A stretch of DNA of 60,741 bases from PVC group bacterium (lineage in GTDB: Bacteria; Auribacterota; Erginobacteria; Erginobacterales; PUNC01): assembly GCA_003551625.1 (NCBI GenBank), contig PUNC01000243.1:1-60741 (forward strand). Reading direction: 5' to 3'. Below the pieces are notes generated by a model. The model did not search any database, was not told the DNA's origin, and worked only from the letters and a program-made list of their open reading frames with translations. Shown here one piece after another: positions 2,087 through 59,119 of the stretch (position 1 is the first letter of the stretch; every line of letters starts with the position of its first letter). The position numbers and the translations under genes are program-made.

Positions 2087-2485
2087 TTATTTTTCCGGGA
2101 TACCTGTCTCCGGCGGTCTCTCTTCTCCGGCCAGAGGATTGACCGCGATCCGGATTTCAAGATCTTCGCCCCCGAAGTCCAGGGCGAAATCGGTCGTCAG
2201 CCGGTGAAGCAGAAGATTGAAGGGCATCTCCGCTCTTCCGGCCTCGCTCTCCACCACCAGCCGGGCCCGGCCCAGAATGGGCCCGGCCCGCCGGATCGCG
2301 GAGAGCAGCTCCCGGAGAAGGCCGAGCCTCTCCGCCGTCCGGTCGTCAAGCCGTTCAACCCGGCCGCAGGCCGGACAGCGGATCCCGCGGTCTTCCCCGA
2401 TGGTCTCGAAATCGAATCGAACCGGGAGCCGGCATCGCTCATTCCGGCAAAGGAGTTCGGCGGTCGGCGGCTTTTCCTGGCTCAT
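2087..2485 (-). CDS. Hypothetical small zinc-ribbon protein
   Basis: ORF 2087-2503. The second ATG (2485) has a GAGGTG 6 nt upstream, so it is preferred. Two Cys pairs: CRNERC and CPACG. Confidence 0.5.
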   Translation of the reverse strand: MSQEKPPTAELLCRNERCRLPVRFDFETIGEDRGIRCPACGRVERLDDRTAERLGLLRELLSAIRRAGPILGRARLVVESEAGRAEMPFNLLLHRLTTDFALDFGGEDLEIRIAVNPLAGEERPPETGIPEK

Positions 2486-2528
2486 CACGCTCACCTCTTT
2501 CATAAATAATCCGGTTTCAGGCCGCCGA

Positions 2529-3407
2529 TCAATCGGCGGGGTAGAGACTCAACTGGCCCGCGGCCCGGACCCGTTCCAGGCGGGGATAATAAACCGCCAG
2601 CGCGTCGGGGACCGCTACCGGCCCGCCCTCGAGCCGGGACCGGAGTTCCAGGCAGTTGCAGACCGCCTGCCCCCGGAAATGGTTGTTGGCGATCACATAG
2701 ACCGCGGCGGCGGCCTCTTTCAGGGAGTTTATTCGACCCACCCATTCTTCGAGTTCCTCCTCCGGGTAGAGATAGTCGTAGCGCTCGTCCCGGCCGGCGT
2801 CTTCCCGGAACCAGTTCGCGGCGTTCCTCCCGTGAAGACGGACATAGGCCGTCGGGGCGGTGACGACCGCGGTCGGCGGCAGCGAATATGAAACCGGAGG
2901 CTGATCGATGTTGCAGAAGCCGATCCCTTCGTCCCGGAGAAAGCCGAAGACCTCCTCCCGGGCCCAGGAACGATGACGGAATTCGGCGACCAACGGCCAG
3001 TCGGCGAAACGCTCTTTCAGCCGCTTCAGATAAGCGGTGTTCTCCGCCCGACGGTGAAACGAGTAGGGAAACTGGGCGAGCAGGGCCCCCAGCCGGCCCG
3101 ACTCCAGCAGCAGGGCCATCCCCTTCTCCCACTCTTTTCCTTCCCGCCCCGGATCCGCTTCCCGCGTATGGGTGAACCCCCGCCAGAGCTTGGCGGTAAA
3201 ACGAAAATCGGCCGCGGCGGCGGTATCGCTCAACCACCGGAGAAGATTCTCCTTTCGGGGCGGGCGGTAAAAAGTCACGTTGATCTCGACGGCCTGCAGA
3301 TACCGGCTCAGATACGCCAGGCGGTTGGAAGCGGGGCGGGGGTAAACGATCCCGTCCCAATCGGGATAATGCCATCCCGCCGTTGCCGCTCTCACCCGGG
3401 CGGTCAT
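2529..3407 (-). CDS. DUF72 (YecE-like) family protein
   Basis: C-terminal 292 aa of the 513-aa track ORF, starting MTARVRAATAGWHYPDWDGIVYP. Contains VEINVTFYRPP, YVRLHGRN and VIANNHFRGQA, typical of DUF72. The ATG at 3407 overlaps the upstream stop as ATGA. Confidence 0.85.
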   Translation of the reverse strand: MTARVRAATAGWHYPDWDGIVYPRPASNRLAYLSRYLQAVEINVTFYRPPRKENLLRWLSDTAAAADFRFTAKLWRGFTHTREADPGREGKEWEKGMALLLESGRLGALLAQFPYSFHRRAENTAYLKRLKERFADWPLVAEFRHRSWAREEVFGFLRDEGIGFCNIDQPPVSYSLPPTAVVTAPTAYVRLHGRNAANWFREDAGRDERYDYLYPEEELEEWVGRINSLKEAAAAVYVIANNHFRGQAVCNCLELRSRLEGGPVAVPDALAVYYPRLERVRAAGQLSLYPAD

Positions 3408-4240
3408 CGCCCGCGCCTCCCCTTCGGAACGGCCCGGCGGATCTCTACCCGGTCCCCCGGCCGGAGACCGAACTCTTTGGCGGCCGAGCCGCCGTTGACG
3501 GCGATCTCCAGGTAGCCGGAACTTCCCCACAGGGCCGCCCGGCCGCCTTTGGGAACGGAACCGTAACTGGCCGCGAGGGGAAGTTCCCCGGGATCGGGAC
3601 CGGAGGAAGTCGCGACGGTCAGCCGGGCCGGCGGCCGGAAAAGGGCGGCGGCCCGGGCGGCGGCGATCGAAGTGATCAGATTGCCGAAACGATCGACGTA
3701 AACGATCTCGCCGCTCCACCCCTTTCCGCCGAGGCGGCGCGAACGGGGACGGGGCAGCAGCACCGGATCGGAGACCGCGGGGCCCAGCTCGGAAGGTTCC
3801 AGACCCCGGGCCAGGCGGGCGGCCACCGGCGCGAAGATATCGCGTCCGTGAAATGTCCGGCTCACTACGGGCAGAAACAGGCTCCGGTCGCGGACGGAAT
3901 ATACTTTCGCCCGCGGAGACGACCGGAGGGGGAAGGAGAGGAGGCCGTTGTCGGGCGCGATGAAACGGCTCCGGCCCCGCCGGAAGGCGATAATCCGGCG
4001 CGAGGTTCCCACGCCCGGATCCACCACGGCCAGGAAGACCGTCTCCGGGGGAAAGAAACGGCGGCAGCATTCGAGAACGAAAGCCGCGGACCGGATGTCG
4101 CCCGGTTCGATCTGATGGGTGATATCGGCCAGCCTCGCCCCCGGAACGAGGGAGAGAATCACCCCTCTCATCGCGCCGACAAACCAGTCCCGCTCGCCGA
4201 AATCGGTGAGCAGGGCGATCGGTGCCGGCGGTTTATTCAT
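3404..4240 (-). CDS. SAM hydrolase / SAM-dependent halogenase family protein (DUF62, SAM hydroxide adenosyltransferase-like)
   Basis: Starts at the internal ATG 4240 (MNKPPAPIALLTDFGERDWFVGAMRGVILSL). Also VVDPGVGT and YVDRFGNLITS. The N-terminal track extension overlaps ridA and is Pro/Arg-rich junk. Confidence 0.85.
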   Translation of the reverse strand: MNKPPAPIALLTDFGERDWFVGAMRGVILSLVPGARLADITHQIEPGDIRSAAFVLECCRRFFPPETVFLAVVDPGVGTSRRIIAFRRGRSRFIAPDNGLLSFPLRSSPRAKVYSVRDRSLFLPVVSRTFHGRDIFAPVAARLARGLEPSELGPAVSDPVLLPRPRSRRLGGKGWSGEIVYVDRFGNLITSIAAARAAALFRPPARLTVATSSGPDPGELPLAASYGSVPKGGRAALWGSSGYLEIAVNGGSAAKEFGLRPGDRVEIRRAVPKGRRGR

Positions 4241-4616
4241 CGCCCCGCCAGGCCACGGCTTCAAGCTCAACCCGGGCGCCCTTCGGCAGGGCCGCGACCT
4301 GGAAAGCCGCGCGGGCGGGCGGGCGGGAGACGAAGTAATCGGAGTAAACCCGGTTGAAGGCGGGATAGTCGTCAAGGTCCCACAGGTAAACGGTGGTCTT
4401 GACCACGTCCTCCAATCCGTAACCGGCGGCTTCCAGGACCGCCTTGAGGTTTTCCAGGACGGCGACGGCCTCATCCTCGATCCCGCCGGCTACCCGGGCG
4501 CCGTCGGCCTTAAGCGGCAGTTGGCCGGAGACGAACAGAAATCCTCCCGCCGCGACCGCCTGGGAATAGGGACCGATGGCGGCCGGAGCTCTTTCGGTGG
4601 CGATTATCTTCTTCAT
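4233..4616 (-). CDS. ridA: RidA family reactive-intermediate deaminase (YjgF/L-PSP)
   Basis: 127 aa: MKKIIATERAPAAIGPYSQAV..FVSGQLP..VKTTVYL..PARAAFQVAALPKGARVELEAVA. Confidence 0.9.
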   Translation of the reverse strand: MKKIIATERAPAAIGPYSQAVAAGGFLFVSGQLPLKADGARVAGGIEDEAVAVLENLKAVLEAAGYGLEDVVKTTVYLWDLDDYPAFNRVYSDYFVSRPPARAAFQVAALPKGARVELEAVAWRGDE

Positions 4617-5953
4617 TATTTCACCTCCTTCTCCCCGGATTTTACCAGCAGCGCGCAGTAATAGCCATCCCCGGGACCGTCTCCCGGCAGGGCGGACCCG
4701 GCGGAGGCGAGAACGAAATCCTTCCGGTCCCGAAGAAAGCCGTCGACCACTTCCCGGTTTTCCTCCGGCTCGATCGAGCAGGTGCTGTAAACCAGGCGGC
4801 CGCCGGGTTTGACCGTTCCGGCGGCGGCGGCCAGCATCCGGCCGGCCCGGCGGGCCAGACGGTCCGGATCGGAAGGGCGCAGTCGCCAGCGGGCGTCGAC
4901 CCGGCGGCGGAAAACCCCGGTATTGGAACAGGGGACGTCGAGCAGCGCCGCGTCGGCGGCGGAGAGAGCGACGGCGGGCCGGAAGGCGTCCATCCGCGCC
5001 GGCCGGGCGCAGGCGATTTTAAGCCGGGAGATGTTTTCCACCAGGAGCTTGATCCTTTCCGGTGAACGATCGGCGGCGAGCACTACTCCCCGTCCACCCA
5101 TCTTCTCGGCCGCGTAGGTTGCCTTTCCCCCGGGTGAAGCGCAGAAATCGACCACCAGCTCCCCGGGGCGGGGGTCGAGAAGTTTTACCGCCTCCAGGGT
5201 GGATGGATCCTGCACCTGGAACCATCCTTCCCGAAAGGGCTCCAGTTCGGAAAGCGACCCCGCCGGCTCAAGCACACCGATATTCGGCCTCCCCGGGAGG
5301 GGGAGATAGCTCCGCCCGGCGCGGGCCAGCTTCTCCCGCAAAGCCCGGGGTTCGGCGACCAACCGGTTTACCCGGATGTAAACCGGGGGGGGAGAGTTGC
5401 CGGCGCGGCAGATCTCCTCCGTCCGGGCCCGGCCCCATCTTTTCAGCCAGCGATCGACAAGCCAGCGGGGATGGGAATGAACCGCCGCCAGCCTATCGAC
5501 AACCCCTTCCTCCGGCCACTCCGGAGAAAAATCCGGTCGGGAAAAACGCCGCAGGAGAGCGTTGAGATAGGCGCGTTCGGGCCGGGAGAGAAATTCCCGG
5601 GCCAGTTCGCCGGCCTGGTGGACGACGGCGTGGGGAGCCGGTGCCAAAATTTCCTCCCGGAGATGGAAGACGGACAGGCGGAGAATCTGCCGGGCGTAGG
5701 AAGCCGGCGGCGGCCGGCGGCGGGGCGAATAAAGATCGATCAGCCGGTCAAGCCGCCCCCGCAGGCGGAGCACGCCGTAAACCGAGGAGACGACCAGCGC
5801 GCGGTCGGACGGAGAAAGTCCTGAACCGGGAAGAGCTTCCTCAAGCAGATCGCGGGCGAAGCGGCCCTTCTGTTCCCAATCGCGTAGAATACGGACGATC
5901 AGCCGGCGCGCCGCGGTCGCCGAGGAGGAGGGGTTGGTGGAGCGCGGTTTCAA
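4616..5953 (-). CDS. rsmB: 16S rRNA (cytosine967-C5)-methyltransferase
   Basis: NusB-like N-terminus plus methyltransferase motifs FCASPGGKATY, DVPCSNTGV and YSTCSIEPEEN. The first codon is TTG (no nearby ATG). The stop overlaps the ridA ATG by 1 nt. Confidence 0.9.
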   Translation of the reverse strand: MKPRSTNPSSSATAARRLIVRILRDWEQKGRFARDLLEEALPGSGLSPSDRALVVSSVYGVLRLRGRLDRLIDLYSPRRRPPPASYARQILRLSVFHLREEILAPAPHAVVHQAGELAREFLSRPERAYLNALLRRFSRPDFSPEWPEEGVVDRLAAVHSHPRWLVDRWLKRWGRARTEEICRAGNSPPPVYIRVNRLVAEPRALREKLARAGRSYLPLPGRPNIGVLEPAGSLSELEPFREGWFQVQDPSTLEAVKLLDPRPGELVVDFCASPGGKATYAAEKMGGRGVVLAADRSPERIKLLVENISRLKIACARPARMDAFRPAVALSAADAALLDVPCSNTGVFRRRVDARWRLRPSDPDRLARRAGRMLAAAAGTVKPGGRLVYSTCSIEPEENREVVDGFLRDRKDFVLASAGSALPGDGPGDGYYCALLVKSGEKEVK

Positions 5954-5965
5954 GATCCGGAGAGA

Positions 5966-6421
5966 CTAGCCTTCTTTCAGCAGGCGCCGCAACACCGCCT
6001 CCACCTCGGCCGGATCCACCCGGGTATCCCGGCAGGGACCGTGGGGGCGGAGGTTGATTACCGCCAGGGCCGGCTTGCGGCCCTTGCGGAGGAGTCCGGA
6101 GACAATCTCCTTCTCGCAGGCGACCGCCACCACGGCCTTGATCTCCGGTTTTTTGAGCAGCTCGAGAGCGATTCCCCCGCCGGTGGCCATCTCCAGGCGG
6201 GCGCCGTGTTTTTTCGCCAGTTCCGCCAACCCCCCGAAATCGCACCTGCCGCACCGAAGGCAGTTGCCGGAATCGGCGACCACGTTCCGGTCGCAGCCGC
6301 TGTACTGAAGACAGCGGGGAGTCAAGATCAGGATCTCGTTTCCCGAAAAAGACCCTCCCCGCCTCCCCGTCCATCGGTTATGCGCCCGGATAACAGCCCT
6401 GCGGAGGCGGTCGAGGTTCAC
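5966..6421 (-). CDS. DUF116 family protein (short form)
   Basis: Cys-rich C-terminal region (PRCLQYSGCD..NCLRCGRCDFG..VAVACEKE). This is the usual position between fmt and rsmB. A GTG at 6421 overlaps the fmt TGA (GTGA). The longer 233-aa track ORF would overlap fmt by about 250 nt. Confidence 0.6.
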   Translation of the reverse strand: MNLDRLRRAVIRAHNRWTGRRGGSFSGNEILILTPRCLQYSGCDRNVVADSGNCLRCGRCDFGGLAELAKKHGARLEMATGGGIALELLKKPEIKAVVAVACEKEIVSGLLRKGRKPALAVINLRPHGPCRDTRVDPAEVEAVLRRLLKEG

Positions 6422-7353
6422 AAGCGGTCTCCCGGACGCAGGCGCCGGCCTCTTAAATATTCCCCCGCCGTCATCGCGCCGCCGCCCGCGGGCTGAAGCC
6501 GCTCGACCCGAACCGTCCCCTCCCCGGCCGCGATCTCGAGGAGATCGCCGGCGGCGCGCAACACCGTACCGGGGCTTCCTTTCTCCGCGGGCATCGGCCG
6601 GACGGCGAGAATCCTCACCCTTTCGCGGCCGGAAGCGCGGGGGAAAAAGGTGTGGGTTCCCGGCCACGGGTTGAGGGCCCGGACCAGCCGGTCGATCCGC
6701 GCGGCGGAAAGTTTCCAGTCGATCAAAGCGTCGGACTTGGTGAAGGCGGGCGCCCAGGTGACCTCGCTTTCGGCCTGGGGAACAGCGCGGGCGCCCCCCC
6801 GCTCGATCTCCCCCACCACCTTTACCAGAACCGCGGCGCCCATCTCCGCCAACCGGGCGCAGAGAGATGGGTAGTCTTCCCGCTCCCCGATCGGCGTCCT
6901 CTCCCGGGCGAAAATTTCACCGGCGTCGAGTTCGGGAGTGAGCCGGATTACGCTGACCCCGGTCTCCCGGTCGCCTTCGATCAGGGCCCATTGAATCGGC
7001 GCGGCGCCCCGCCAGCGGGGAAGCAGGGAGGGGTGGAGGTTGATCGCGGCCGCCGGAAACTGCGCGACCACCCCGCCGGGAATATACTTTCCGTAAGCGG
7101 CCACCGCCATCAGCTCGCCTCCCGCGGCCGCGAGTTTCTCTCTGAACTCCGGGGAAGTGAGCTTCTCCGGCTGGAAGACCGGCAACCCCAACTGCCGGGC
7201 GCGAAGCTTGACCGGGGGCGGCAGCACCCTCCCCCCGCGGCCGCGGGGACGGTCGGGACGGGTAACGACCGCGGCCACCGGGTGCGGCCCGGCGGCCAGG
7301 GCGTCGAGCGACGGCAGGGAAAACTCCGGAGTTCCCCAGAATATTACCTTCAT
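6418..7353 (-). CDS. fmt: Methionyl-tRNA formyltransferase
   Basis: Starts at ATG 7353 (MKVIFWGTPEFSLPSL). Also INLHPSLLPRWRGAAPIQ. ATGA overlap with the upstream gene. Confidence 0.92.
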   Translation of the reverse strand: MKVIFWGTPEFSLPSLDALAAGPHPVAAVVTRPDRPRGRGGRVLPPPVKLRARQLGLPVFQPEKLTSPEFREKLAAAGGELMAVAAYGKYIPGGVVAQFPAAAINLHPSLLPRWRGAAPIQWALIEGDRETGVSVIRLTPELDAGEIFARERTPIGEREDYPSLCARLAEMGAAVLVKVVGEIERGGARAVPQAESEVTWAPAFTKSDALIDWKLSAARIDRLVRALNPWPGTHTFFPRASGRERVRILAVRPMPAEKGSPGTVLRAAGDLLEIAAGEGTVRVERLQPAGGGAMTAGEYLRGRRLRPGDRL

Positions 7354-51301: not shown

Positions 51302-51562
51302 TTAATGCGGCGGTTCTTTCTTTTCTTCCGGAGACCGCTGCTCGCCTCCTTCCGGAGGCTGCGATTTCTCTTCCGCCGGGGGAGGCGGCTGATCTTCCGC
51401 CGGGGGACGCGGCCTCTCTTCCGCCGGGGGACGCGGTCTCTCTTCCGCCGGGGGACGCGGCTCTTCGGGAGACGGTTTCGATGGTTTCTTGCCCGCGTTG
51501 GCAAGCATATAAACGACTATCACAGCCACCACGGCCACGATGAAAATCCAGATAACACCCAT
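51302..51562 (-). CDS. Small membrane-anchored protein with Pro/Glu-rich 8-aa repeats
   Basis: MGVIWIFIVAVVAVIVVYMLA TM helix, then (E/D)xPxPPAE x4-5. AAGGAGG 5 nt before the ATG, with its own promoter and terminator. Confidence 0.7.
   Translation of the reverse strand: MGVIWIFIVAVVAVIVVYMLANAGKKPSKPSPEEPRPPAEERPRPPAEERPRPPAEDQPPPPAEEKSQPPEGGEQRSPEEKKEPPH
51370..51465 (-). repeat. 4 x 24-nt in-frame tandem repeat
   Basis: cttccgccggggga(c/g)gcgg.. units begin at 51370, 51394, 51418 and 51442. Confidence 0.85.
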
Positions 51563-51760: not shown

Positions 51761-51812
51761 TTTTCACCGGTCGAACTGGCCGGCGCAAATAAACTAAAAG
51801 GAGGATTTGAAG

Positions 51813-52181
51813 ATGAAGAAAACCGCCCTGATCGGACTGGCCCTGCTCTTCCTGCTTGCCGCTCCCCCGCTTTATTCGCAGGTAACCGTCCCGGAGAACA
51901 TCCGGGATGTAATACCGGAACACCCGGAACAGACCCTGGTGGCGGGGTTCAGCTCCGACACCAGCGATACCGTTCTTCTTTCGATTCCGGATGGATACGC
52001 CCGGGTCACCGATTTCTACAAGAATCATTTTACCGGAAGCGGCTGGAAGGTGGAGATGGAGATGAGCCTGGAAGGCGGCAATCTTCTGTCTCTTGTCAAG
52101 GAGGGCAGGCTTCTTAACCTTATGCTCAGCCGGGACGGTGAAGCGTCGACCTCGGTCAGCATCACGTTGGAAGCCCGCTGA
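51813..52181 (+). CDS. Hypothetical secreted protein
   Basis: MKKTALIGLALLFLLAAPPLYSQ signal peptide. AAGGAGG 9 nt before ATG 51813 (the track start at 51807 is a TTG). Confidence 0.65.
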   Translation: MKKTALIGLALLFLLAAPPLYSQVTVPENIRDVIPEHPEQTLVAGFSSDTSDTVLLSIPDGYARVTDFYKNHFTGSGWKVEMEMSLEGGNLLSLVKEGRLLNLMLSRDGEASTSVSITLEAR

Positions 52182-52200
52182 CCCCTTGCCCGTGCCGCAG

Positions 52201-52698
52201 TTAGCCCCCAACGGTTCTTTTCTCCAGGGCAATCAGGTAAGACTTCCAGGCGGGACCGGCCGTAAACCCCCCGACGGAACCGTCGGCCCTGATCACCCGG
52301 TGACAGGGAATAAGGAGCGGCCAGGGGTTCATTCCCAGGGCGGTTCCCACCGCCCGCCCGGCCCGGGGGCGGCCTATCCTCCTTGCCAGCCGGCCGTATG
52401 ACTCGGTCGCCCCCCAGGGGATGGCAGCGGCCCGGAGCCATACCTGTTTGACAAATTCTCCGTAAGGCTCAAGATCGGGACGAAAATTCTCCAGGGAAAT
52501 AATCCGGGCCCAATCGCGGCCGGCGACTTCATCGACGGGGTATACCTCGGGAATCCGGGGAGGCAACCGCAATGACTCCGGTTTGCCGCCTTTCCAGATC
52601 ATCGTCAGCCTGCCGATGGGGGTATCCATCGGCTCCTCCCGCCGGCCGGAGTTGAAGCTCCCGGTTCCGAATCGGTTTTCCTCTCCCGTAATCTTCAT
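52201..52698 (-). CDS. ogt: Methylated-DNA--protein-cysteine methyltransferase
   Basis: IPWGATESYGRLA..GRAVGTALGMNPWPLLIPCHRVI (PCHRV active site). ATGA overlap with the ispH-fusion stop. Confidence 0.88.
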   Translation of the reverse strand: MKITGEENRFGTGSFNSGRREEPMDTPIGRLTMIWKGGKPESLRLPPRIPEVYPVDEVAGRDWARIISLENFRPDLEPYGEFVKQVWLRAAAIPWGATESYGRLARRIGRPRAGRAVGTALGMNPWPLLIPCHRVIRADGSVGGFTAGPAWKSYLIALEKRTVGG

Positions 52699-54392
52699 CT
52701 TCCGAAAAGAAAAGCGGCCAGGCCGGCAATCACGAACTGTCCGTCAATCAATGCCTGGAATACCGGCAGGGGATAAATCCGCCTTTGCTGGAACAGCTGT
52801 TGTAAGGCCAGGGCGTAGACGTAAGCGGCGGGGGCCAGCCAGAGCCCCAGGGTGGGAGCCGCCAACCCCCCCAGCAGCAGGATGACCCCCACCACGAAGG
52901 AGTTGAGAAGCAATACCGTGATCACCGCGTTCTTCGGCCCCATCGTCACCGGCAGCGTCCGCCAGCCCATAAAACGGTCTTTCTGGGCCATGGGAAGCGC
53001 CAACAGCGTGGAGCGGTTGAATACGATCAGGAAGATCAGCGCGAAGACGCCCCCGATCATCTTGAGAGACGCCGGCGGCGAGGCGATCGCGGGAATCAGG
53101 GCGGCGACACCGGCGATGGCGCCGGCTTTCACCGATTCCCTCACCGCGGGCAGGGCCAGCGGGCTGCCGGCCGGAAATGCCAGCGGCCGCCAGCGGCCGG
53201 CGGCCAGAATCGCCGCCGGCGGCAGAAGCGCCGCCGCCGCTCCCCACGCCGGCCGGCCGACCGCCGCCAGCGAAACGAAGACCCCCGCCGCCGACACCGC
53301 TCCCAGGACCGCCGGCAGCGGGATGCCCTTCCGCTCCACCGCCCCGCTTCCGGGCCGGGCGATGTCCGCCAGACGGCGTGCCGCGAAATACTCCACGGCC
53401 AGAAACATCCCGGCCAGGGCGGAAGCCGCCCGCGCTCCGGCCCCGAGCGTGACGGCGGCGGCGTAGGTAAGCGCCCCCATCCCCAGCCCGGGATATATTC
53501 CGCTTCCGGCCAGGAAACTCAGCAGCCGGTGAAACCAGCGGCCGAAGCGGCCGCCGCAGGAGGCGAAGAGACGGTTGACTACCTCCTGGATAACCCACTC
53601 CGGGGTCGAGGCGCCCCCGACGACGCCCACCGCCCGGAACCGCTTGAGTTTTTCCGGATCGAGTTCGGCGGCGCTCTCGACCGGAATAACCACCAGGCCG
53701 AGCGAGGCGGCCAGGCGGGCCAGACGAGCGGTGTTGGCGCTGTTTCTCCCCCCCACCACGACCATCGCCTCCACCTGGGCGGCCACCCTCTTCAGTTCAT
53801 CCTGGCGGGACGAGGTCGAGGGGCAGATGGTGTCAAAAACCACCAGGTCGCGGAACTTCGAACCGATCTTTCGGATTATATCTTCAAACTCCTCGCGATT
53901 CTGCGTCGTCTGGGAGACCAGGCAGACCTTCTCCATCGGGGGCAGATCCAGAGCTTCGGCCGCCGACGAGATAACGTGTCCCCTGCCCTCCGCGAACCCC
54001 AGCAAACCCTCGACCTCGCTATGTCCCCGGTCACCGAAGATCACGGTGGAGTACCCCCGGGCGGCGAATTTCTTGATCTTGGCCTGAACCTTTACGACAT
54101 CCGGGCAGCTGGCGTCAAAAATCCGGGCCCGGGTGGCTTTGAGTCTTTCCCTCACCCCGGGCGAGACGCCATGGGCGCTGATGAACCCGGACCCGGCGCC
54201 TTCAAAATCCGCCGGGTCCCGGCTCGCCCGGATGCCGCGGCTCTTGAGCAGTTCCACCACCTGGGGGTTGTGAATAATCGGGCCGTAGGTCATTATCCCG
54301 GAATCGGAACGCTTCTCCCGCTCGAGCACCGCCTCGAGCGCGCGCTCGACGCCCATACAGAACCCGGTATTTCGGGCGACCACAATCCTCAT
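52695..54392 (-). CDS. ispH: IspH (HMBPP reductase) fused to a C-terminal polytopic UbiA-like membrane domain
   Basis: Residues 1 to about 285 look like IspH: GFCMGVERA, HNPQVV, ASCPDV, TICPST, VVGGRNSANT. Residues about 286-565 carry 7-8 predicted TM helices with ARPGSGAV and KDRFMGWRTLPVTMG, which resemble UbiA-family loop motifs. Confidence 0.8.
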   Translation of the reverse strand: MRIVVARNTGFCMGVERALEAVLEREKRSDSGIMTYGPIIHNPQVVELLKSRGIRASRDPADFEGAGSGFISAHGVSPGVRERLKATRARIFDASCPDVVKVQAKIKKFAARGYSTVIFGDRGHSEVEGLLGFAEGRGHVISSAAEALDLPPMEKVCLVSQTTQNREEFEDIIRKIGSKFRDLVVFDTICPSTSSRQDELKRVAAQVEAMVVVGGRNSANTARLARLAASLGLVVIPVESAAELDPEKLKRFRAVGVVGGASTPEWVIQEVVNRLFASCGGRFGRWFHRLLSFLAGSGIYPGLGMGALTYAAAVTLGAGARAASALAGMFLAVEYFAARRLADIARPGSGAVERKGIPLPAVLGAVSAAGVFVSLAAVGRPAWGAAAALLPPAAILAAGRWRPLAFPAGSPLALPAVRESVKAGAIAGVAALIPAIASPPASLKMIGGVFALIFLIVFNRSTLLALPMAQKDRFMGWRTLPVTMGPKNAVITVLLLNSFVVGVILLLGGLAAPTLGLWLAPAAYVYALALQQLFQQRRIYPLPVFQALIDGQFVIAGLAAFLFGR

Positions 54393-54761
54393 CTCAAGCT
54401 TCCAGGTTCAGGGGTTCAAAAGTTATAAAGCAGATTCCAGATTCTAGATTTTGGATTTCAGTCAAGCCCGGTTCCGCCCATTTTTCATCTCGGGATAACA
54501 GAAGCCCAGCAGGCCAAGTCGATAAGATGATAAGTTTATAAGTTGATAAGTGCCGGGGTTCAAAGGTTCCGGGTTTGTTCAAAGTTATTACTCGGAGCAT
54601 AAAATAGTTTACTAAGGAGAGCATAAAATAGGTTGCACGTCATTGCGAGGAGCGAAGCGACGAAGCAATCTCATTGGACATTGCGAATTGGAAATTTTAA
54701 CCCGCGGTGAAACTTTGCGGGTCGGCATTCGCTTTTAACGCTATGCCCTATGCGCTATGCG
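54393..54761. repeat. Mosaic intergenic repeat island, copy 3
   Basis: cagattc x4 stutter (54431-58). gataag 8-nt stutter (54521-52). 35-mer (54541-75). gagcataaaata x2. cattgcgaggagcgaagcgacgaagcaatc (54641-70). 30-mer (54695-724). ctatgcS x3 (54741-61), which runs into the CDS stop. Confidence 0.85.
54535..54563 (-). promoter_or_regulatory. Promoter-like site inside the repeat module (TTGAAC-17-TATAAA), facing ispH-ogt
   Basis: The minus strand reads TTGAACcccggcacttatcaactTATAAA. Confidence 0.4.
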
Positions 54762-55863
54762 TTCTTTCAACGAATTCCCTGACCGCCCGGCAAACATACT
54801 CGATCTGCTCTTCGGTCAGCTCCGGAAAGATCGGCAGCGACAGAATCTCGGCGGCCAGCCTTTCGGCCACCGGGAAATCACCGGCCGAATAACCGAGGTC
54901 GCGGTAAGCCTTCTGAAGATGAACCGGGATCGGATAGTGTATGCCGCAACCGATCCCCCGGGCGCTCAAATCGGCCAGCAGTTCGTCCCGGCGGGTGGAG
55001 CGGATCACGAAGAGATGATAGACGTGGCGGTTGCCCGGCGTTTCGGAGGGCGGGATCACGCCGGCGGAGTCCAGAAGCTCACGGTAACGATCGGCGTGGC
55101 GACGGCGGGCGTCATTCCATCCTGAAAGACGGGGCAGCTTGACGCCGAGAACGGCGGCCTGCATTGTGTCCAGGCGGCTGTTCCATCCCACGATGTCGTG
55201 ATAATACTTGCGCGACTGCCCGTAGTTCCTGAACATCCGCGCCTGCCCGGCGACCTCTTCGTCGTCGGTGACGATGGCCCCCCCGTCCCCGTAGGCGCCC
55301 AGGTTCTTCCCCGGGTAGAAACTGAAGCATCCCGCCCTCCCCATCTTCCCGCAGCGGAGGCCCCGGTATTCGGCCCCGTGAGCCTGGGCGGCGTCTTCGA
55401 TCACGACCAGGTGATACTCTTCGGCGATCGCCGCGATCGCGTCCATATCGGCGGACTGGCCGTAAAGGTGAACCGGGATGACCGCCTTGGTCCGGGGGGT
55501 AACGGCTTTCCTTACCGCCGACGGATCGATCTGGAAAGAATCTTCCCGGCAATCCACCAGGACCGGCCGCGCGCCCGCGTAGCTGATCGCGAGTACCGTG
55601 GCGATGTAGGTGTTGGCCGCCGTGATCACCTCGTCGCCCGGACCGATCCCGCAGGCTTTCAACGCCCACAGGAGGGCGTCGCATCCACTTCCGACCCCCA
55701 CGCAGTATTTCGCGCCGCAGAATTCGGCGAAGGCCTCTTCAAACGCTTCCACTTCCTCCCCAAGTATGAACGCTCCTCGTTTCATAACACTCTCGACCGC
55801 CGGGATGATCTCCGAAGCGATATTCGCGTATTGCGTCTGCAGATCGACGAACGGTATCTTCAT
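54748..55863 (-). CDS. DegT/DnrJ/EryC1 family PLP aminotransferase (WbpE/WlbC-like)
   Basis: MKIPFVDLQTQYANI..GEEVEAFEEAFAEFCGAKYCVGVGSGCDAL.. Starts at the second ATG (55863), with AAGGAG 5 nt upstream. The 576-aa track ORF is an artefactual upstream extension. Confidence 0.88.
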   Translation of the reverse strand: MKIPFVDLQTQYANIASEIIPAVESVMKRGAFILGEEVEAFEEAFAEFCGAKYCVGVGSGCDALLWALKACGIGPGDEVITAANTYIATVLAISYAGARPVLVDCREDSFQIDPSAVRKAVTPRTKAVIPVHLYGQSADMDAIAAIAEEYHLVVIEDAAQAHGAEYRGLRCGKMGRAGCFSFYPGKNLGAYGDGGAIVTDDEEVAGQARMFRNYGQSRKYYHDIVGWNSRLDTMQAAVLGVKLPRLSGWNDARRRHADRYRELLDSAGVIPPSETPGNRHVYHLFVIRSTRRDELLADLSARGIGCGIHYPIPVHLQKAYRDLGYSAGDFPVAERLAAEILSLPIFPELTEEQIEYVCRAVREFVERTHSA

Positions 55864-55866
55864 CAT

Positions 55867-56087
55867 TTCTCCTTGGGCAGGCTTTTCATACTGCTTTCCT
55901 AAGATATCCCCGTTTTTCCAAACCTGTCGGAATAATCCGGTTTGAGTATGTGTAAGAGTACGTGTGAGAGTACGTGTAAGAGTATGGGATGGATAAGAGT
56001 TCACCTTCGACATTGGACATTGAGAATTGGGAGTTGGACATTCGCTTTTAACCCTGCGCGCTCTGCGCTTCGCGTCTTTTCCCCATC
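55867..56087. repeat. Mosaic intergenic repeat island, copy 4
   Basis: ttttccaaacctgtcggaataatccggtttga (55914-45). 12-nt units gtaYgtgtRaga (55946-93). cattgga 7-nt stutter x5 (56011-45). ctgcgcg/ctctgcg/cttcgcg (56054-74). Confidence 0.85.
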
Positions 56088-56792
56088 TCACTTCCTCAAC
56101 CCCAGCTTCAGCAGAAATATCGGCCGCAGCAGCTTCCACCAGTCGATCCCCGGCCGGATCTTGGTATAGCCGAGCTTTTTCGGCGGGTAGATCTTGGTCA
56201 CCGGGACCTCTTTTACCCGGTAGCCCAACGTTGCCGCCCGGTAGAGTATATAGGGTTCTAATTCGTAGGCGTTCAGCCACTCCTGATCGAGGTTGATCCT
56301 CGGGTCGGAGAAGATGCTCAGCCGGATGGCCCGGAAGCCGTTCGTGGTGTCGGTAAAGCGGCTTCCGGTCGCGAGGTTCATCAGCCAGGGATGAAGCCGG
56401 GTGGCCAGGCGGCGGTAGGCGGGCATTCCCCCGCTGGTTCCGCCGGCAAGATAGCGCGAACCCTGCGCGAGATCGCAACCGTCGGCGATCTCGCGAAGCA
56501 GCAGGGGTATCTCGGAAGGCCGGTCCTTGTCGTTCCCGGCCAGGATTACGATCACGTCAAAACCGTGGGAGCGGGCGTATTTGACGGCGGTCCGAATCGC
56601 AGCGCCGACACCATAACGCTTCTCGTGAGAGACCACCTCCACCCCCCGCCGCTCGACCTCCCGCCGGGTCTCATCGGTGGAGGCGTCATCCACGACGATG
56701 ATCTTGTCCACCAGCCCGGGGGTGAAACGGTCCAGGACCCGTCCGATCTTCTCTCCCTCGTTGAACGCGACCGGTGCCGCCAGCGTCCTCAC
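56088..56792 (-). CDS. Family 2 glycosyltransferase
   Basis: AAPVAFNEGEKIG..IIVVDDASTDET.. is a GT-A fold. The GTG at 56792 overlaps the upstream TGA (GTGA). Confidence 0.75.
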   Translation of the reverse strand: MRTLAAPVAFNEGEKIGRVLDRFTPGLVDKIIVVDDASTDETRREVERRGVEVVSHEKRYGVGAAIRTAVKYARSHGFDVIVILAGNDKDRPSEIPLLLREIADGCDLAQGSRYLAGGTSGGMPAYRRLATRLHPWLMNLATGSRFTDTTNGFRAIRLSIFSDPRINLDQEWLNAYELEPYILYRAATLGYRVKEVPVTKIYPPKKLGYTKIRPGIDWWKLLRPIFLLKLGLRK

Positions 56793-57388
56793 TGACCCAG
56801 CTCCGCGGGGGCGATCCCGGATTCGGTTGCCCGGTAACGCCGATCGCACTCCCGGCAGGATAATTGGGCTTTGTCAAGACCGCCTCCGCAAACACAGACG
56901 AATCCGGAAACCCGGGCCGGAACGCCGAGAACGAGCCCGAAATCGGGCACATCCTTCAGCACCAGGGCCCCGGCGGCGACCAGCGCGTAACGGCCGATGG
57001 TGACTCCGGCAAGGATCGTGGAGTTGGCCCCGATCGAGGCGCCCTCACGAACATTGGTCTTGGCCAGCCAATCCTTGGAGCGGTATCTTTCCGCGGCCGC
57101 CGGGTTGCGCGGGGAGCGGGGGCGGCGATCGTTGGTGAAGACGGCGTTGGGTCCGACGAAAACATAATCTTCCAGGATCACGCCTTCCCATATGCAGACG
57201 TTGTTCTTGACGGTCACACCGTCTCCCACCACGGCCCCGGCCTCGATAAAGGCGTGATCCCCGATGTTGCAGTCGCGGCCGATCTCGGCTCCCTTCATAA
57301 CGTGGGCGAAAGCCCAGATCCTGGTGCCGTCGCCGACCGCGGAGGATTCGTTCAGCGCTCTCTGGTGAACGAAGACCTTATCCGCCAT
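56789..57388 (-). CDS. Hexapeptide-repeat sugar N-acetyltransferase (WbpD/WlbB-like)
   Basis: Left-handed beta-helix repeats (IGDHAFIEAGAVVGDGVTVKNNVCIWEGVILEDYVFVGPNAVFTND). C-terminal CxC..CxxC tail. Confidence 0.8.
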   Translation of the reverse strand: MADKVFVHQRALNESSAVGDGTRIWAFAHVMKGAEIGRDCNIGDHAFIEAGAVVGDGVTVKNNVCIWEGVILEDYVFVGPNAVFTNDRRPRSPRNPAAAERYRSKDWLAKTNVREGASIGANSTILAGVTIGRYALVAAGALVLKDVPDFGLVLGVPARVSGFVCVCGGGLDKAQLSCRECDRRYRATESGIAPAELGQ

Positions 57389-58412
57389 AGGCCACCTCGG
57401 TCATCCGGCCGCCATCGGCCAGGGAGCGGGAAGCGGCCTCCAGGATGTCGACCACCTCCGCCCCCTCTTTCGCCGAACCGCGGACGTCCTCCTGCTCGCC
57501 GAGACAGCGTTTGAAGAAAGCCAGCGACTGGGCCATAAGCGGCTCCCGGGAAGGAATCCGGGGAAGGATGACATCCCCCTCCCTCGACAACAGCTGAAAC
57601 TCGCCGAAGGTACGGTAACGCGGCTCCCGGGTTACCTTCCGGTCATATACCGCCACCGGGCCGGGAGACCCGAGGTCGTCCCAGGTGATCATCTTATTTT
57701 CGCCCACCAGGGTGATCTGCCGGACTTTCTTGGGGTCGAGCCAGCTGACGTGAATATGGCCGAGCAGTCCGCCGGGATAGCGCAGCGTCAGGAAAACGAT
57801 GTCTTCGAGAGAATCCTGAAGATACCTGCCGCCGACCGCCGCCGCCGATTCGGGTCGGCCGGCGGCCAGGTGATTGAGAATGTAGATATCGTGCGAAGCG
57901 AGGTCCCAGGCGGCGTTGACATCGTAGCGAAAAGGCCCCAGGTTGGTCCGGACGGCGCTTATGTAGTAAAGCTTCCCGGCCTCCCCGTTCCGGGCGGCGG
58001 CGGCCAGGTAATCTATCCCGGGATTGAAAAGAAAGACGTGGCCGACCATCAGCCTCCGGCGGTGCTTCTCCGCCAGCGCGGCCAGCTCCCAGGACTGGCC
58101 GCTGTCGGCGGCGAGCGGTTTTTCGCAGAGAACGTGCTTGCCCGCTTCCAGCGCGGCCTTGACCAACCGGTAATGGGTAGAAGTCGGCGTCGCCACCACC
58201 ACCGCGTCTACGGCGGGATCGCCGATCACCCGTCCGGCGTCTTCGTGGGCTTCGACACCCGGATATGAATTAACTATGGAATCCCGCCGCGGTCCGTCCG
58301 GGTCGGCGACCGCCTTCACCCGGCAGCCGGGAATGCCGTTGAAGTTCCGAACGTGGTTAGGCCCCCAGCGTCCGACGCCAACAACCCCGACCGTCAACGT
58401 CTTCCCGCCCAT
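57378..58412 (-). CDS. Gfo/Idh/MocA family oxidoreductase (WbpB/WlbA-like)
   Basis: VGVVGVGRWGPNHVRNF Rossmann N-terminus, then EKPLA. Confidence 0.82.
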   Translation of the reverse strand: MGGKTLTVGVVGVGRWGPNHVRNFNGIPGCRVKAVADPDGPRRDSIVNSYPGVEAHEDAGRVIGDPAVDAVVVATPTSTHYRLVKAALEAGKHVLCEKPLAADSGQSWELAALAEKHRRRLMVGHVFLFNPGIDYLAAAARNGEAGKLYYISAVRTNLGPFRYDVNAAWDLASHDIYILNHLAAGRPESAAAVGGRYLQDSLEDIVFLTLRYPGGLLGHIHVSWLDPKKVRQITLVGENKMITWDDLGSPGPVAVYDRKVTREPRYRTFGEFQLLSREGDVILPRIPSREPLMAQSLAFFKRCLGEQEDVRGSAKEGAEVVDILEAASRSLADGGRMTEVAYGG

Positions 58413-59119
58413 TATTCTTCCTCTTTCGCGGAGAGTATGATCCGCGCGTCCACCACCCAGGCCTTATTCGCGTCCACCCGGAGCGGGTTGGCGTCAAGCT
58501 CGGAGATCTGCGGATAATCCGCCACCAACCGCGAAATCCGGCTGATGGCCCGCGCCAGCGCCGGAATATTCGCCGCCTCTTCGCCCCGGAATCCCTTGAG
58601 CAGCACCGCCGAACGGATCTCTTCGATCATCCCGGCCGCCTCGTCTTCCGAAACCGGAGCCGCCCGGAAAACAACGTCCTTGAAAACCTCGACGAATATT
58701 CCGCCCAGGCCGAACATCACCACCGGCCCGAACTGGGGGTCGCGGCTGGAGCCGATTATCACCTCCCGGCCGGTGGGGATCATCTTCTGAACCAGGATAC
58801 CCCGGATCTCGGCCCCGGAATCGTAATCCGCGGCGTTTTTTCTGATCGCGTCCCAGGCTTCCCGAAGCTCGGCTTCCCCGGAAATACCGACCTTGACCCC
58901 GCCGGCGTCGGATTTGTGTATTATCTGGGGGGACATAATCTTGAGCACCACCGGCCAGCCCGCTTCGGAAGCGAAGGCAACCCCGTCTTCCGGCGACTCC
59001 GCCAGGATTGCCGGGGCCACGTCAAGCCCGTATTCGGCCAGAATTTCCTCGGCTTCGTACTCGAGCAGGAACTCGCGGCCTTCTTTCAAACATCTTTCGA
59101 TGACGGCGCTGATGTTCAT
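58412..59119 (-). CDS. acdB: ADP-forming acetyl-CoA synthetase beta subunit (ATP-grasp)
   Basis: LEYEAEEILAEYGL..VVLKIMSPQIIHKSDAGGVKVGI. Confidence 0.82.
   Translation of the reverse strand: MNISAVIERCLKEGREFLLEYEAEEILAEYGLDVAPAILAESPEDGVAFASEAGWPVVLKIMSPQIIHKSDAGGVKVGISGEAELREAWDAIRKNAADYDSGAEIRGILVQKMIPTGREVIIGSSRDPQFGPVVMFGLGGIFVEVFKDVVFRAAPVSEDEAAGMIEEIRSAVLLKGFRGEEAANIPALARAISRISRLVADYPQISELDANPLRVDANKAWVVDARIILSAKEEE

Follow-up and report, generated by a model that had tools for sequence, protein, structure and literature searches.

Fusions of the isoprenoid enzyme IspH to a UbiA-type membrane domain have been described bioinformatically. Rao, O'Dowd, Li, Wang and Oldfield (2015, Chem Sci 6:6813; PMC4746011) reported 47 IspH-UbiA 'Rosetta stone' proteins (CDD group PT_UbiA_5) to which no function was assigned. 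Two DxxxD repeats were noted in the UbiA domain, which was expected to have prenyltransferase activity, and two proposals were made for the fusion: either IspH feeds the prenyltransferase, or the UbiA domain localises IspH to the membrane (PMC4746011). The family was reported from sulfate-reducing anaerobes only (PMC4746011), and just one later paper of the searchable literature mentions the term IspH-UbiA. A protein of this type is encoded by contig PUNC01000243.1 of a Planctomycetes-Verrucomicrobia-Chlamydiae (PVC) group bacterium (assembly GCA_003551625.1; positions 1 to 60,741 of the forward strand, this whole stretch of 60,741 nucleotides being called the window here). The gene, at 52695-54392 on the minus strand, joins an apparently intact IspH to a UbiA-derived domain that has very probably lost Mg2+-dependent prenyl transfer and is evidently still under selection. 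The original prediction, made from the letters of the window, knew of no characterisation of such a fusion. The fusion type itself is not new, having been described in 2015, and the prediction holds in that it has never been characterised biochemically. The degenerate clade to which the window protein belongs appears to be undescribed, and a literature search joining Auribacterota and isoprenoid found nothing.

Like the described IspH-UbiA proteins, the window protein consists of an N-terminal IspH and a C-terminal UbiA-like domain with the same junction (approximately 565-590 amino acids [aa] in total), and the homology extends across the whole length. Its IspH nests beside that of P0071, a canonical fusion from a Candidatus Auribacterota metagenome-assembled genome (MAG; MCX6347989.1, GCA_026392075.1); NCBI assigns this phylum to the PVC group. 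It differs from the described proteins in that the two DxxxD motifs are gone in its clade and in that the reported hosts are sulfate reducers, whereas its nearest canonical relative is from the Auribacterota MAG. Named members of the fusion clusters are from Syntrophobacteria, 'Deltaproteobacteria', Nitrospirota, Nitrospinota and Candidatus Auribacterota MAGs. Public annotation labels these proteins simply as IspH, which hides the membrane domain.

Two other groups of proteins can be compared with the window protein. The first is the solved UbiA superfamily: ApUbiA (4OD4/4OD5), AfUbiA (4TQ3-6), DGGGP synthase (6M31/7BPU), UBIAD1 (8DJK) and chlorophyll synthase (9SAU). The window domain shares with these proteins its predicted fold of nine transmembrane (TM) helices (TM-score 0.49-0.62 among the top 14 Foldseek matches), the register of the motif regions and an N-in orientation with the motif loops toward the cytoplasm. 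Unlike them, it has no equivalents of N68, Y139 and D198, scores below the PF01040 gathering cutoff and is joined to a soluble Fe-S enzyme. The second group is the IspH-RPS1 fusions of Clostridia and Fusobacteria (PMC4746011; NF000907), which also have a large C-terminal partner on IspH, one that is dispensable for IspH catalysis in vitro (PMC4746011). The IspH half of the window protein matches the IspH part of NCBIfam NF000907. The IspH-RPS1 partner, in contrast, is a set of soluble RNA-binding S1 repeats rather than a membrane domain, and the C-terminal parts are non-homologous.

The fused gene is, as had been predicted, a single open reading frame (ORF) of 565 aa; with its stop it runs from an ATG start at 54392. 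The feature is as follows:

52695-54392, minus strand: fused ORF (IspH plus UbiA-derived membrane domain), in frame in independent contigs and also a single ORF in loci L001, L002 and L004

The window sequence comes from a salt-lake metagenome run of 2012 (X1). Over 52200-54550, Logan's independent contig from this source run agrees with the window at every position (0 differences, 0 gaps). Lake water from a different lake, sequenced in a 2025 run (X2), gave a contig that has 129 substitutions but 0 gaps over 52211-54449. The fused ORF recurs in P0002 (locus L002, the X2 strain; 94-95% identical to the window protein), in the more distant P0003 (locus L001; 68-71% identical) and in P0004 (locus L004); the C-terminal domains of the three are 94%, 68% and 35% identical to that of the window. 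An artefact, in which ispH and an adjoining membrane-protein gene had been merged through a missed stop or frameshift, is refuted by the two independent contigs, of which the first is identical over the ORF and the second has no indel. The junction is also kept in 23 fusion clusters, and the same type of fusion was described independently in 2015 (PMC4746011). Nothing was found in favour of an artefact, the probability of which is virtually nil. The frameshift or stop that the original prediction had allowed for at the junction is absent, and the IspH-UbiA fusion is confirmed as real and in frame.

The N-terminal half was predicted to be a complete IspH with its three cluster cysteines (GFCMG, SCPDV and ICPST), and this was borne out by profile matches and by alignment to a solved IspH. 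The features of this half are the following:

53553-54392, minus strand: IspH (LytB) domain, residues 1-280 (PF02401, TIGR00216 and 3DNF matches; predicted local distance difference test [pLDDT] mostly 85-97)
54357-54359, minus strand: Cys12 codon, first [4Fe-4S] ligand, GFCMG (aligned to the 3DNF cluster Cys)
54105-54107, minus strand: Cys96 codon, second cluster ligand, SCPDV (invariant among fusions; aligned to 3DNF)
53823-53825, minus strand: Cys190 codon, third cluster ligand, ICPST (invariant among fusions; aligned to 3DNF)

PF02401 matches residues 3-275 (E-value: 5.1e-84; 282 bits vs a cutoff of 24.5), and the equivalog model TIGR00216 is passed with 255.6 bits (cutoff 187.85). Aquifex aeolicus IspH (3DNF) aligns over its full length with residues 3-281 (E-value: 4.5e-59). 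In an alignment of 23 fusions, C96, C190, H41, H74, H124, E126, T162/T163, S218, N220 and S262 are invariant; C12 is present in every full-length fusion and is missing only from two 5'-truncated entries. The substrate-binding and proton-relay residues of Escherichia coli IspH (H41, H74, H124, E126, T167, S225, N227 and S269) have as window counterparts H41, H74, H124, E126, T162/T163, S218, N220 and S262. The ratio of nonsynonymous to synonymous substitution rates (dN/dS) of the IspH half is 0.14 against L002 and 0.17 against L001. Because of the profile scores, the intact cysteines and active-site residues and the low dN/dS, the IspH half is taken to be a working (E)-4-hydroxy-3-methylbut-2-enyl diphosphate (HMBPP) reductase, the enzyme of the last step of the methylerythritol phosphate (MEP) pathway.

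The C-terminal half was predicted to be hydrophobic, which is correct, and to have seven to eight helices, which is not: AlphaFold2 (AF2) gives nine TM helices preceded by a linker helix. These parts are located as follows:

53502-53552, minus strand: linker helix, residues 281-297 (full-length AF2 model, predicted TM-score [pTM] 0.80)
52698-53501, minus strand: UbiA-derived nine-TM domain, residues 298-565, N-in (AF2 helices, Foldseek, hhalign and Lys+Arg [K+R] count)

A direct scan of the C-terminal half with PF01040 gives an E-value of 0.78 and 9.4 bits, below the gathering cutoff of 34.2. The NCBIfam model PRK13591 ('prenyltransferase') matches with an E-value of 0.015, which is not significant alone; it scores just 25-54 bits on canonical relatives (cutoff 238) and does not match the degenerate P0004. 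No NCBIfam prenyltransferase model has the membrane half as an equivalog. The original prediction named the lack of a significant UbiA match as grounds for rejection, and on these direct scans alone it would have failed. The relationship to UbiA was found through intermediates. A phmmer search of 1.84 billion cluster representatives, in which the query was the 279-residue membrane domain alone, gave 69 matches, of which approximately 21 are proteins of 572-593 aa matched at residues ~290-575 (E-values: 6.8e-23 for P0004, 1.5e-8 for P0010). The original prediction asked how the fusion is distributed; these ~21 clusters include Nitrospinota, Nitrospirota and Auribacterota MAGs. The shorter matches are UbiA proteins or pieces of the same fusion. 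About 20 of the 69 matches (at least ~620 aa, aligned in multiple short stretches) were set aside as hydrophobic low-complexity matches. A word-indexed search with the C-terminal region recovered two close relatives alone.

In the aligned fusion set (A2; n = 23), all 23 members have a LYTB match and 21 have a PF01040 match at an E-value of 0.01 or lower (best E-value: 3.4e-18). A profile of the degenerate clade aligns by hhalign to a profile of the canonical members over 273 columns (99.8% probability, E-value: 5.2e-28), and the family profile in turn aligns to chlorophyll synthase (ChlG) and AfUbiA with both motif regions in register. The AF2 model of the membrane domain (pLDDT 73.8, pTM 0.76) has the linker helix and nine TM helices, and its top 14 Foldseek matches in the PDB all belong to the UbiA superfamily (best match ApUbiA 4OD4, E-value: 1.4e-4, TM-score 0.60-0.62; also DGGGP synthase, AfUbiA and UBIAD1); soluble trans-prenyl synthases come next. 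Trees of the IspH domain and of the membrane domain both place the window protein inside the IspH-UbiA family. UbiA descent is firm despite the Pfam E-value of 0.78 because the phmmer family, hhalign and Foldseek link the two, and the membrane half belongs to the UbiA superfamily by both descent and fold.

The loops that the prediction had compared to UbiA motifs with degenerate aspartates, EYFAARRLADIARPGSGAV and MAQKDRFMGWRTLPVTMG, align exactly with motifs 1 and 2 of the canonical family and of the solved UbiA-family proteins. The elements of the former active site are as follows (HL, helical loop region between the numbered helices):

53328-53393, minus strand: motif 1 remnant and HL2-3 loop, residues 334-355 (EYFAARRLADIARPGSGAVERK); R339 at the N68 position, D343 the retained D72 equivalent
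53202-53204, minus strand: Ala397 codon at the UbiA Tyr position (AfUbiA Y139), from alignments; TM4 has no Tyr
53136-53153, minus strand: LPAVRE, residues 414-419, counterpart of family (K)DIPASKD; basic R418 and acidic E419 retained
52938-53018, minus strand: motif 2 remnant and HL6-7 loop, residues 459-485 (NRSTLLALPMAQKDRFMGWRTLPVTMG); A465 and M468 at two Asp positions, D472 (D202) kept

In AfUbiA, N68 and D72 of motif 1 and D198 and D202 of motif 2 coordinate two Mg2+ ions, and Y139, which is ~97% conserved, lies at the scissile C-O bond (PMC4106721). The mutations N68A and D72A abolish binding of geranyl diphosphate (GPP) by AfUbiA, and EcMenA loses function when its equivalents of N68, D72, D198, D202 or Y139 are mutated (PMC4106721). 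The residues at these positions were counted in the 23-member alignment, which consists of 20 canonical members and three degenerate ones (window, P0003 and P0004, listed in that order):

N68 equivalent: N in 17 of 20 canonical; degenerate R, R, E
D72 equivalent: D/E in 14 of 20 canonical; degenerate D, E, G
Y139 equivalent: Y in 18 of 20 canonical; degenerate A, I, A
Upstream Asp of motif 2: D/E in 17 of 20 canonical; degenerate A, A, A
D198 equivalent: D/E in 16 of 20 canonical; degenerate M, M, R
D202 equivalent: D in all 20 canonical; degenerate D, D, D
Residue 478 (Glu after motif 2): E in 19 of 20 canonical; degenerate R, R, R
Residue 471: G in 15 of 20 canonical; degenerate K, K, K

The degenerate clade retains two to three of the eight key positions and the canonical members five to eight, with all eight present in nine of them. 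Motif 2 of the window reads A..M...D, as opposed to D..D...D, and thus has no second DxxxD motif. The losses do not depend on the alignment: within residues 283-565 of the window protein, D343, D472 and D550 are the sole Asp residues, and neither Asn in 283-458 nor Tyr in 336-523 occurs, so no alignment could provide an Asp-rich motif, a TM2 Asn or a TM4 Tyr. As most of the residues that bind Mg2+ or position the prenyl diphosphate have been lost, Mg2+-dependent prenyl transfer is very probably gone from the degenerate clade. The suggestion that the membrane module is possibly non-catalytic is therefore the best-supported reading of these losses.

Might the domain instead be an ordinary Mg2+-dependent UbiA-type prenyltransferase whose motif differences are tolerated variation? 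The canonical family already has a weak first motif (N-R-x-x-D/E), two other members (P0015 and P0040) also lack three of the eight key positions, and D472 and D343 are kept. This is nonetheless very unlikely, given how few key positions remain, the absence of the TM2 Asn, the TM4 Tyr and any pair of nearby Asp residues, the effects of the equivalent single mutations in EcMenA and AfUbiA (PMC4106721) and the shortfall in PF01040 score. Looking at the other members more closely, P0015 lacks the equivalents of N68, the upstream Asp and D198, and P0040 those of N68, D72 and D198; together with P0031, these lineages have lost two or three key positions independently. Catalytic degeneration may therefore be recurrent in the IspH-UbiA family, and to judge from P0015 and P0040 the UbiA half may be able to do without catalysis in other parts of the family too.

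The degenerate clade is small and rare: besides the window it contains two strains from lakes and a single further metagenome lineage, and its sister is the Candidatus Auribacterota protein P0071. The tree of IspH domains recovers the three degenerate lineages as a clade (Shimodaira-Hasegawa-like approximate likelihood ratio test [SH-aLRT] 98) and P0071 as its sister (SH-aLRT 100). The membrane-domain tree also unites them (SH-aLRT 100). A single loss event, with the residue losses having arisen once, would be the simplest account. A profile scan with patterns of the degenerate clade found no member of the clade among GTDB species representatives; its sole match was the canonical locus L003, and a metagenome scan yielded just the P0004 locus and one canonical fragment. 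L003 (CAYTVL010000001.1) has at 2717-4465 a canonical 582-aa IspH-UbiA gene close to the P0042 cluster ('Deltaproteobacteria' MAGs); its title, 'uncultured Enterobacteriaceae bacterium', looks doubtful.

The two halves of the protein have changed at different rates. Between the window and P0004, the tree path measures 0.56 substitutions per site for IspH and 3.2 for the membrane domain, whereas among canonical members the median terminal branch ratio of membrane domain to IspH is approximately 1.6 (1.12 vs 0.69). The longer membrane-domain path therefore points to a past period of relaxed or redirected constraint on this domain. Its composition has also drifted: Gly, Ala, Arg and Pro make up 45% of the membrane half and 33% of the IspH half, and the GC content climbs to 0.68-0.74 across 52750-53750, matching this drift. 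A branch five to six times as long as that of IspH and a drifting composition are what a functionless relic on the way to loss would display, but that the domain is such a relic is highly improbable. The frame has stayed open over 283 codons in four lineages (the synonymous distance, dS, being ~1.2 between two of them), none of the nine TM helices has been lost, and the dN/dS of the membrane domain is 0.28 against L002 and 0.185 against L001 (dS ~1.2), with ogt, the next gene, at 0.35. On these ratios the membrane domain is evidently under purifying selection and not decaying now.

The membrane domain has 19 K+R on cytoplasmic-side segments and four on periplasmic ones, and because of this positive-inside count the N-terminus, and hence IspH, would be in the cytoplasm, the side toward which the loops of the former active site also face. 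In the full-length AF2 model (pLDDT 83.9, pTM 0.80), the last IspH helix (residues 265-279), the linker helix and TM1 (299-316) are consecutive with single-residue breaks. As the model has no flexible linker, IspH should sit near the membrane surface and not be loosely tethered. The model proposed for the window protein is that of one polypeptide in which a catalytically intact cytoplasmic IspH is connected by rigid helices to a nine-helix, UbiA-descended membrane domain. This domain would act as an anchor or scaffold that keeps IspH, and so the production of isopentenyl diphosphate and dimethylallyl diphosphate (IPP/DMAPP), at the inner face of the membrane. An anchoring role is one of the two proposals of Rao et al. 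for the family (PMC4746011). On balance, it is probable, if some way short of certain, that IspH is active and that a UbiA-derived anchor, itself catalytically dead, keeps it at the membrane, a proposal in which we infer both the loss of prenyltransferase activity and the anchoring role.

Several observations weigh against this model. D472 is kept in all three degenerate lineages, and D or E is found at the D72 position in two of the three. R340, R418, R460, R473 and T479 are retained, and K471 and R478, basic residues specific to the clade in the motif 2 remnant, are newly fixed; taken together, this pattern of retained and new residues would fit a remodelled ligand site better than a plain anchor. 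A dN/dS as low as that of IspH would also seem to exceed the constraint that a simple anchor needs. In addition, the AF2 input alignments held canonical UbiA domains, so that the fold evidence is not independent of homology, and Rao et al. did not succeed in expressing full-length IspH-UbiA (PMC4746011).

These basic residues could be explained if the domain had been neo-functionalised. R339, K471 and R478 (with R340, R418, R460 and R473) would then replace Mg2+, and the pocket would bind a diphosphate ligand (HMBPP, IPP/DMAPP or a longer prenyl diphosphate) in a metal-free manner, acting as a sensor or allosteric regulator of IspH, as a hand-over site or as a metal-independent transferase. 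The equivalents of N68, D198 and E478 have each become Arg in at least one lineage, and G471 has become Lys in all three. Acidic residues in the membrane domain are down to 6-9, compared with 9-18 in canonical members, while K+R stays at approximately 22-26. The motif 2 remnant QKDRxxGxRTxP is invariant across lineages that are just 35% identical overall, and the low dN/dS is consistent with such a site as well. The loss of the TM4 Tyr beside the scissile C-O bond, in contrast, makes catalysis less likely. In UbiA enzymes the substrate is covered by the HL2-3 loop, and in the degenerate clade this loop differs even among strains that are 94% identical, the motif 2 loop (residues 471-477) has the lowest model confidence, and no metal-independent UbiA-fold protein was found in the searchable literature (the terms 'UbiA' and 'pseudoenzyme' together gave nothing). 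Neo-functionalisation is unlikely, but it is the main alternative. It is similarly doubtful that the UbiA-derived domain became a metal-independent diphosphate-binding module that senses or hands over HMBPP, IPP/DMAPP or a membrane prenyl diphosphate and so regulates or channels IspH. The anchored IspH remains the preferred model.

Two further features adjoin the fused gene:

54399-54403, minus strand: GGAAG, Shine-Dalgarno-like, 6 nt 5' of the ATG at 54392 (read from sequence)
52201-52698, minus strand: ogt, methylated-DNA-protein-cysteine methyltransferase (PF01035 E-value: 2.4e-27; TIGR00589 E-value: 5.4e-26)

The GGAAG is a putative Shine-Dalgarno site of the fusion gene. The predicted ATGA overlap is present, with the stop of the fusion gene and the start of ogt sharing 52695-52698, and it is also kept in L001 and L002. 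The order ispH-ubiA-ogt of the window, L001 and L002 is echoed in L006 (GCA_026392075.1), which has a canonical fusion, an inserted toxin-antitoxin pair and then ogt-like fragments. At L006 5891-7576, between the canonical IspH-UbiA gene and these fragments, lie an MNT/HepT-type toxin-antitoxin pair and an Unstab_antitox gene; the fragments (87 and 40 aa) are apparently a split ogt. The source organism would belong to an Auribacterota-like PVC lineage, as judged by its sister protein P0071 and by the ogt synteny.

The genes around the fusion are housekeeping genes (thrS, infC, pheS and pheT) and a sugar-nucleotide modification set, with no isoprenoid gene among the neighbours. On the same strand 5' of the fusion (54748-59119, minus strand) are a DegT/DnrJ/EryC1 aminotransferase, a family-2 glycosyltransferase, a hexapeptide acyltransferase, a GFO/IDH/MocA oxidoreductase and then an ATP-grasp_5 protein. 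The ORF listed at 54748-56478 begins at an upstream TTG, and its real length is probably ~380 aa. In L004, a gene judged by sequence similarity to be ATP-grasp_5-like adjoins the fusion upstream. Because the sugar genes are absent there, they look like an insertion/deletion difference between lineages. The intergenic region upstream of the fusion gene (54393-54761), especially 54468-54700, is highly repeated: in all three metagenome runs, summed contig word depth rises from ~12-15 over the gene to 140-470 at 54468-54635 and 2200-7300 at 54636-54700, and the metagenome contigs have many loose ends and alternative joints at 54639-54673.

Each of the four loci of the degenerate clade has, downstream of ogt or of the fusion itself, a small convergent protein with a signal-peptide-like N-terminus (window 51807-52181, plus strand; L001 2398-2763; L002 2373-2741; L004 4916-5548). 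It was recorded as PF27226 (AF_1845) in L001 and L002, and a Pfam scan of the window copy gave no match; its recurrence may be plain synteny. An 86-aa ORF at 51302-51562 (minus strand) has one N-terminal TM helix followed by Pro/Glu-rich repeats (PPAEERPRPPAEERPRPPAED...) and a weak, below-cutoff Pfam match (SARAF, E-value: 7e-4).

That a PVC-like lineage has a membrane domain which is degenerate and yet still selected is of moderate interest, chiefly because it offers a natural test of the purpose of the fusion. The membrane half might serve chemistry (by using the products of IspH) or location (by holding IspH at the membrane). A domain that is still selected after its catalytic residues have gone is natural evidence that at least part of its value is independent of canonical prenyl transfer, and the sporadic, independent losses of key residues in other members point the same way. 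The canonical P0071-type protein and the degenerate window-type protein form a clean pair for comparison. The known hosts of the fusion, so far sulfate reducers, now also include PVC-group (Auribacterota-like), Nitrospinota and Nitrospirota MAGs. If the domain did prove to be a metal-independent module, no earlier pseudoenzyme of the UbiA fold would have had a regulatory role, and nature would have supplied an experiment on the purpose of the whole IspH-UbiA family.

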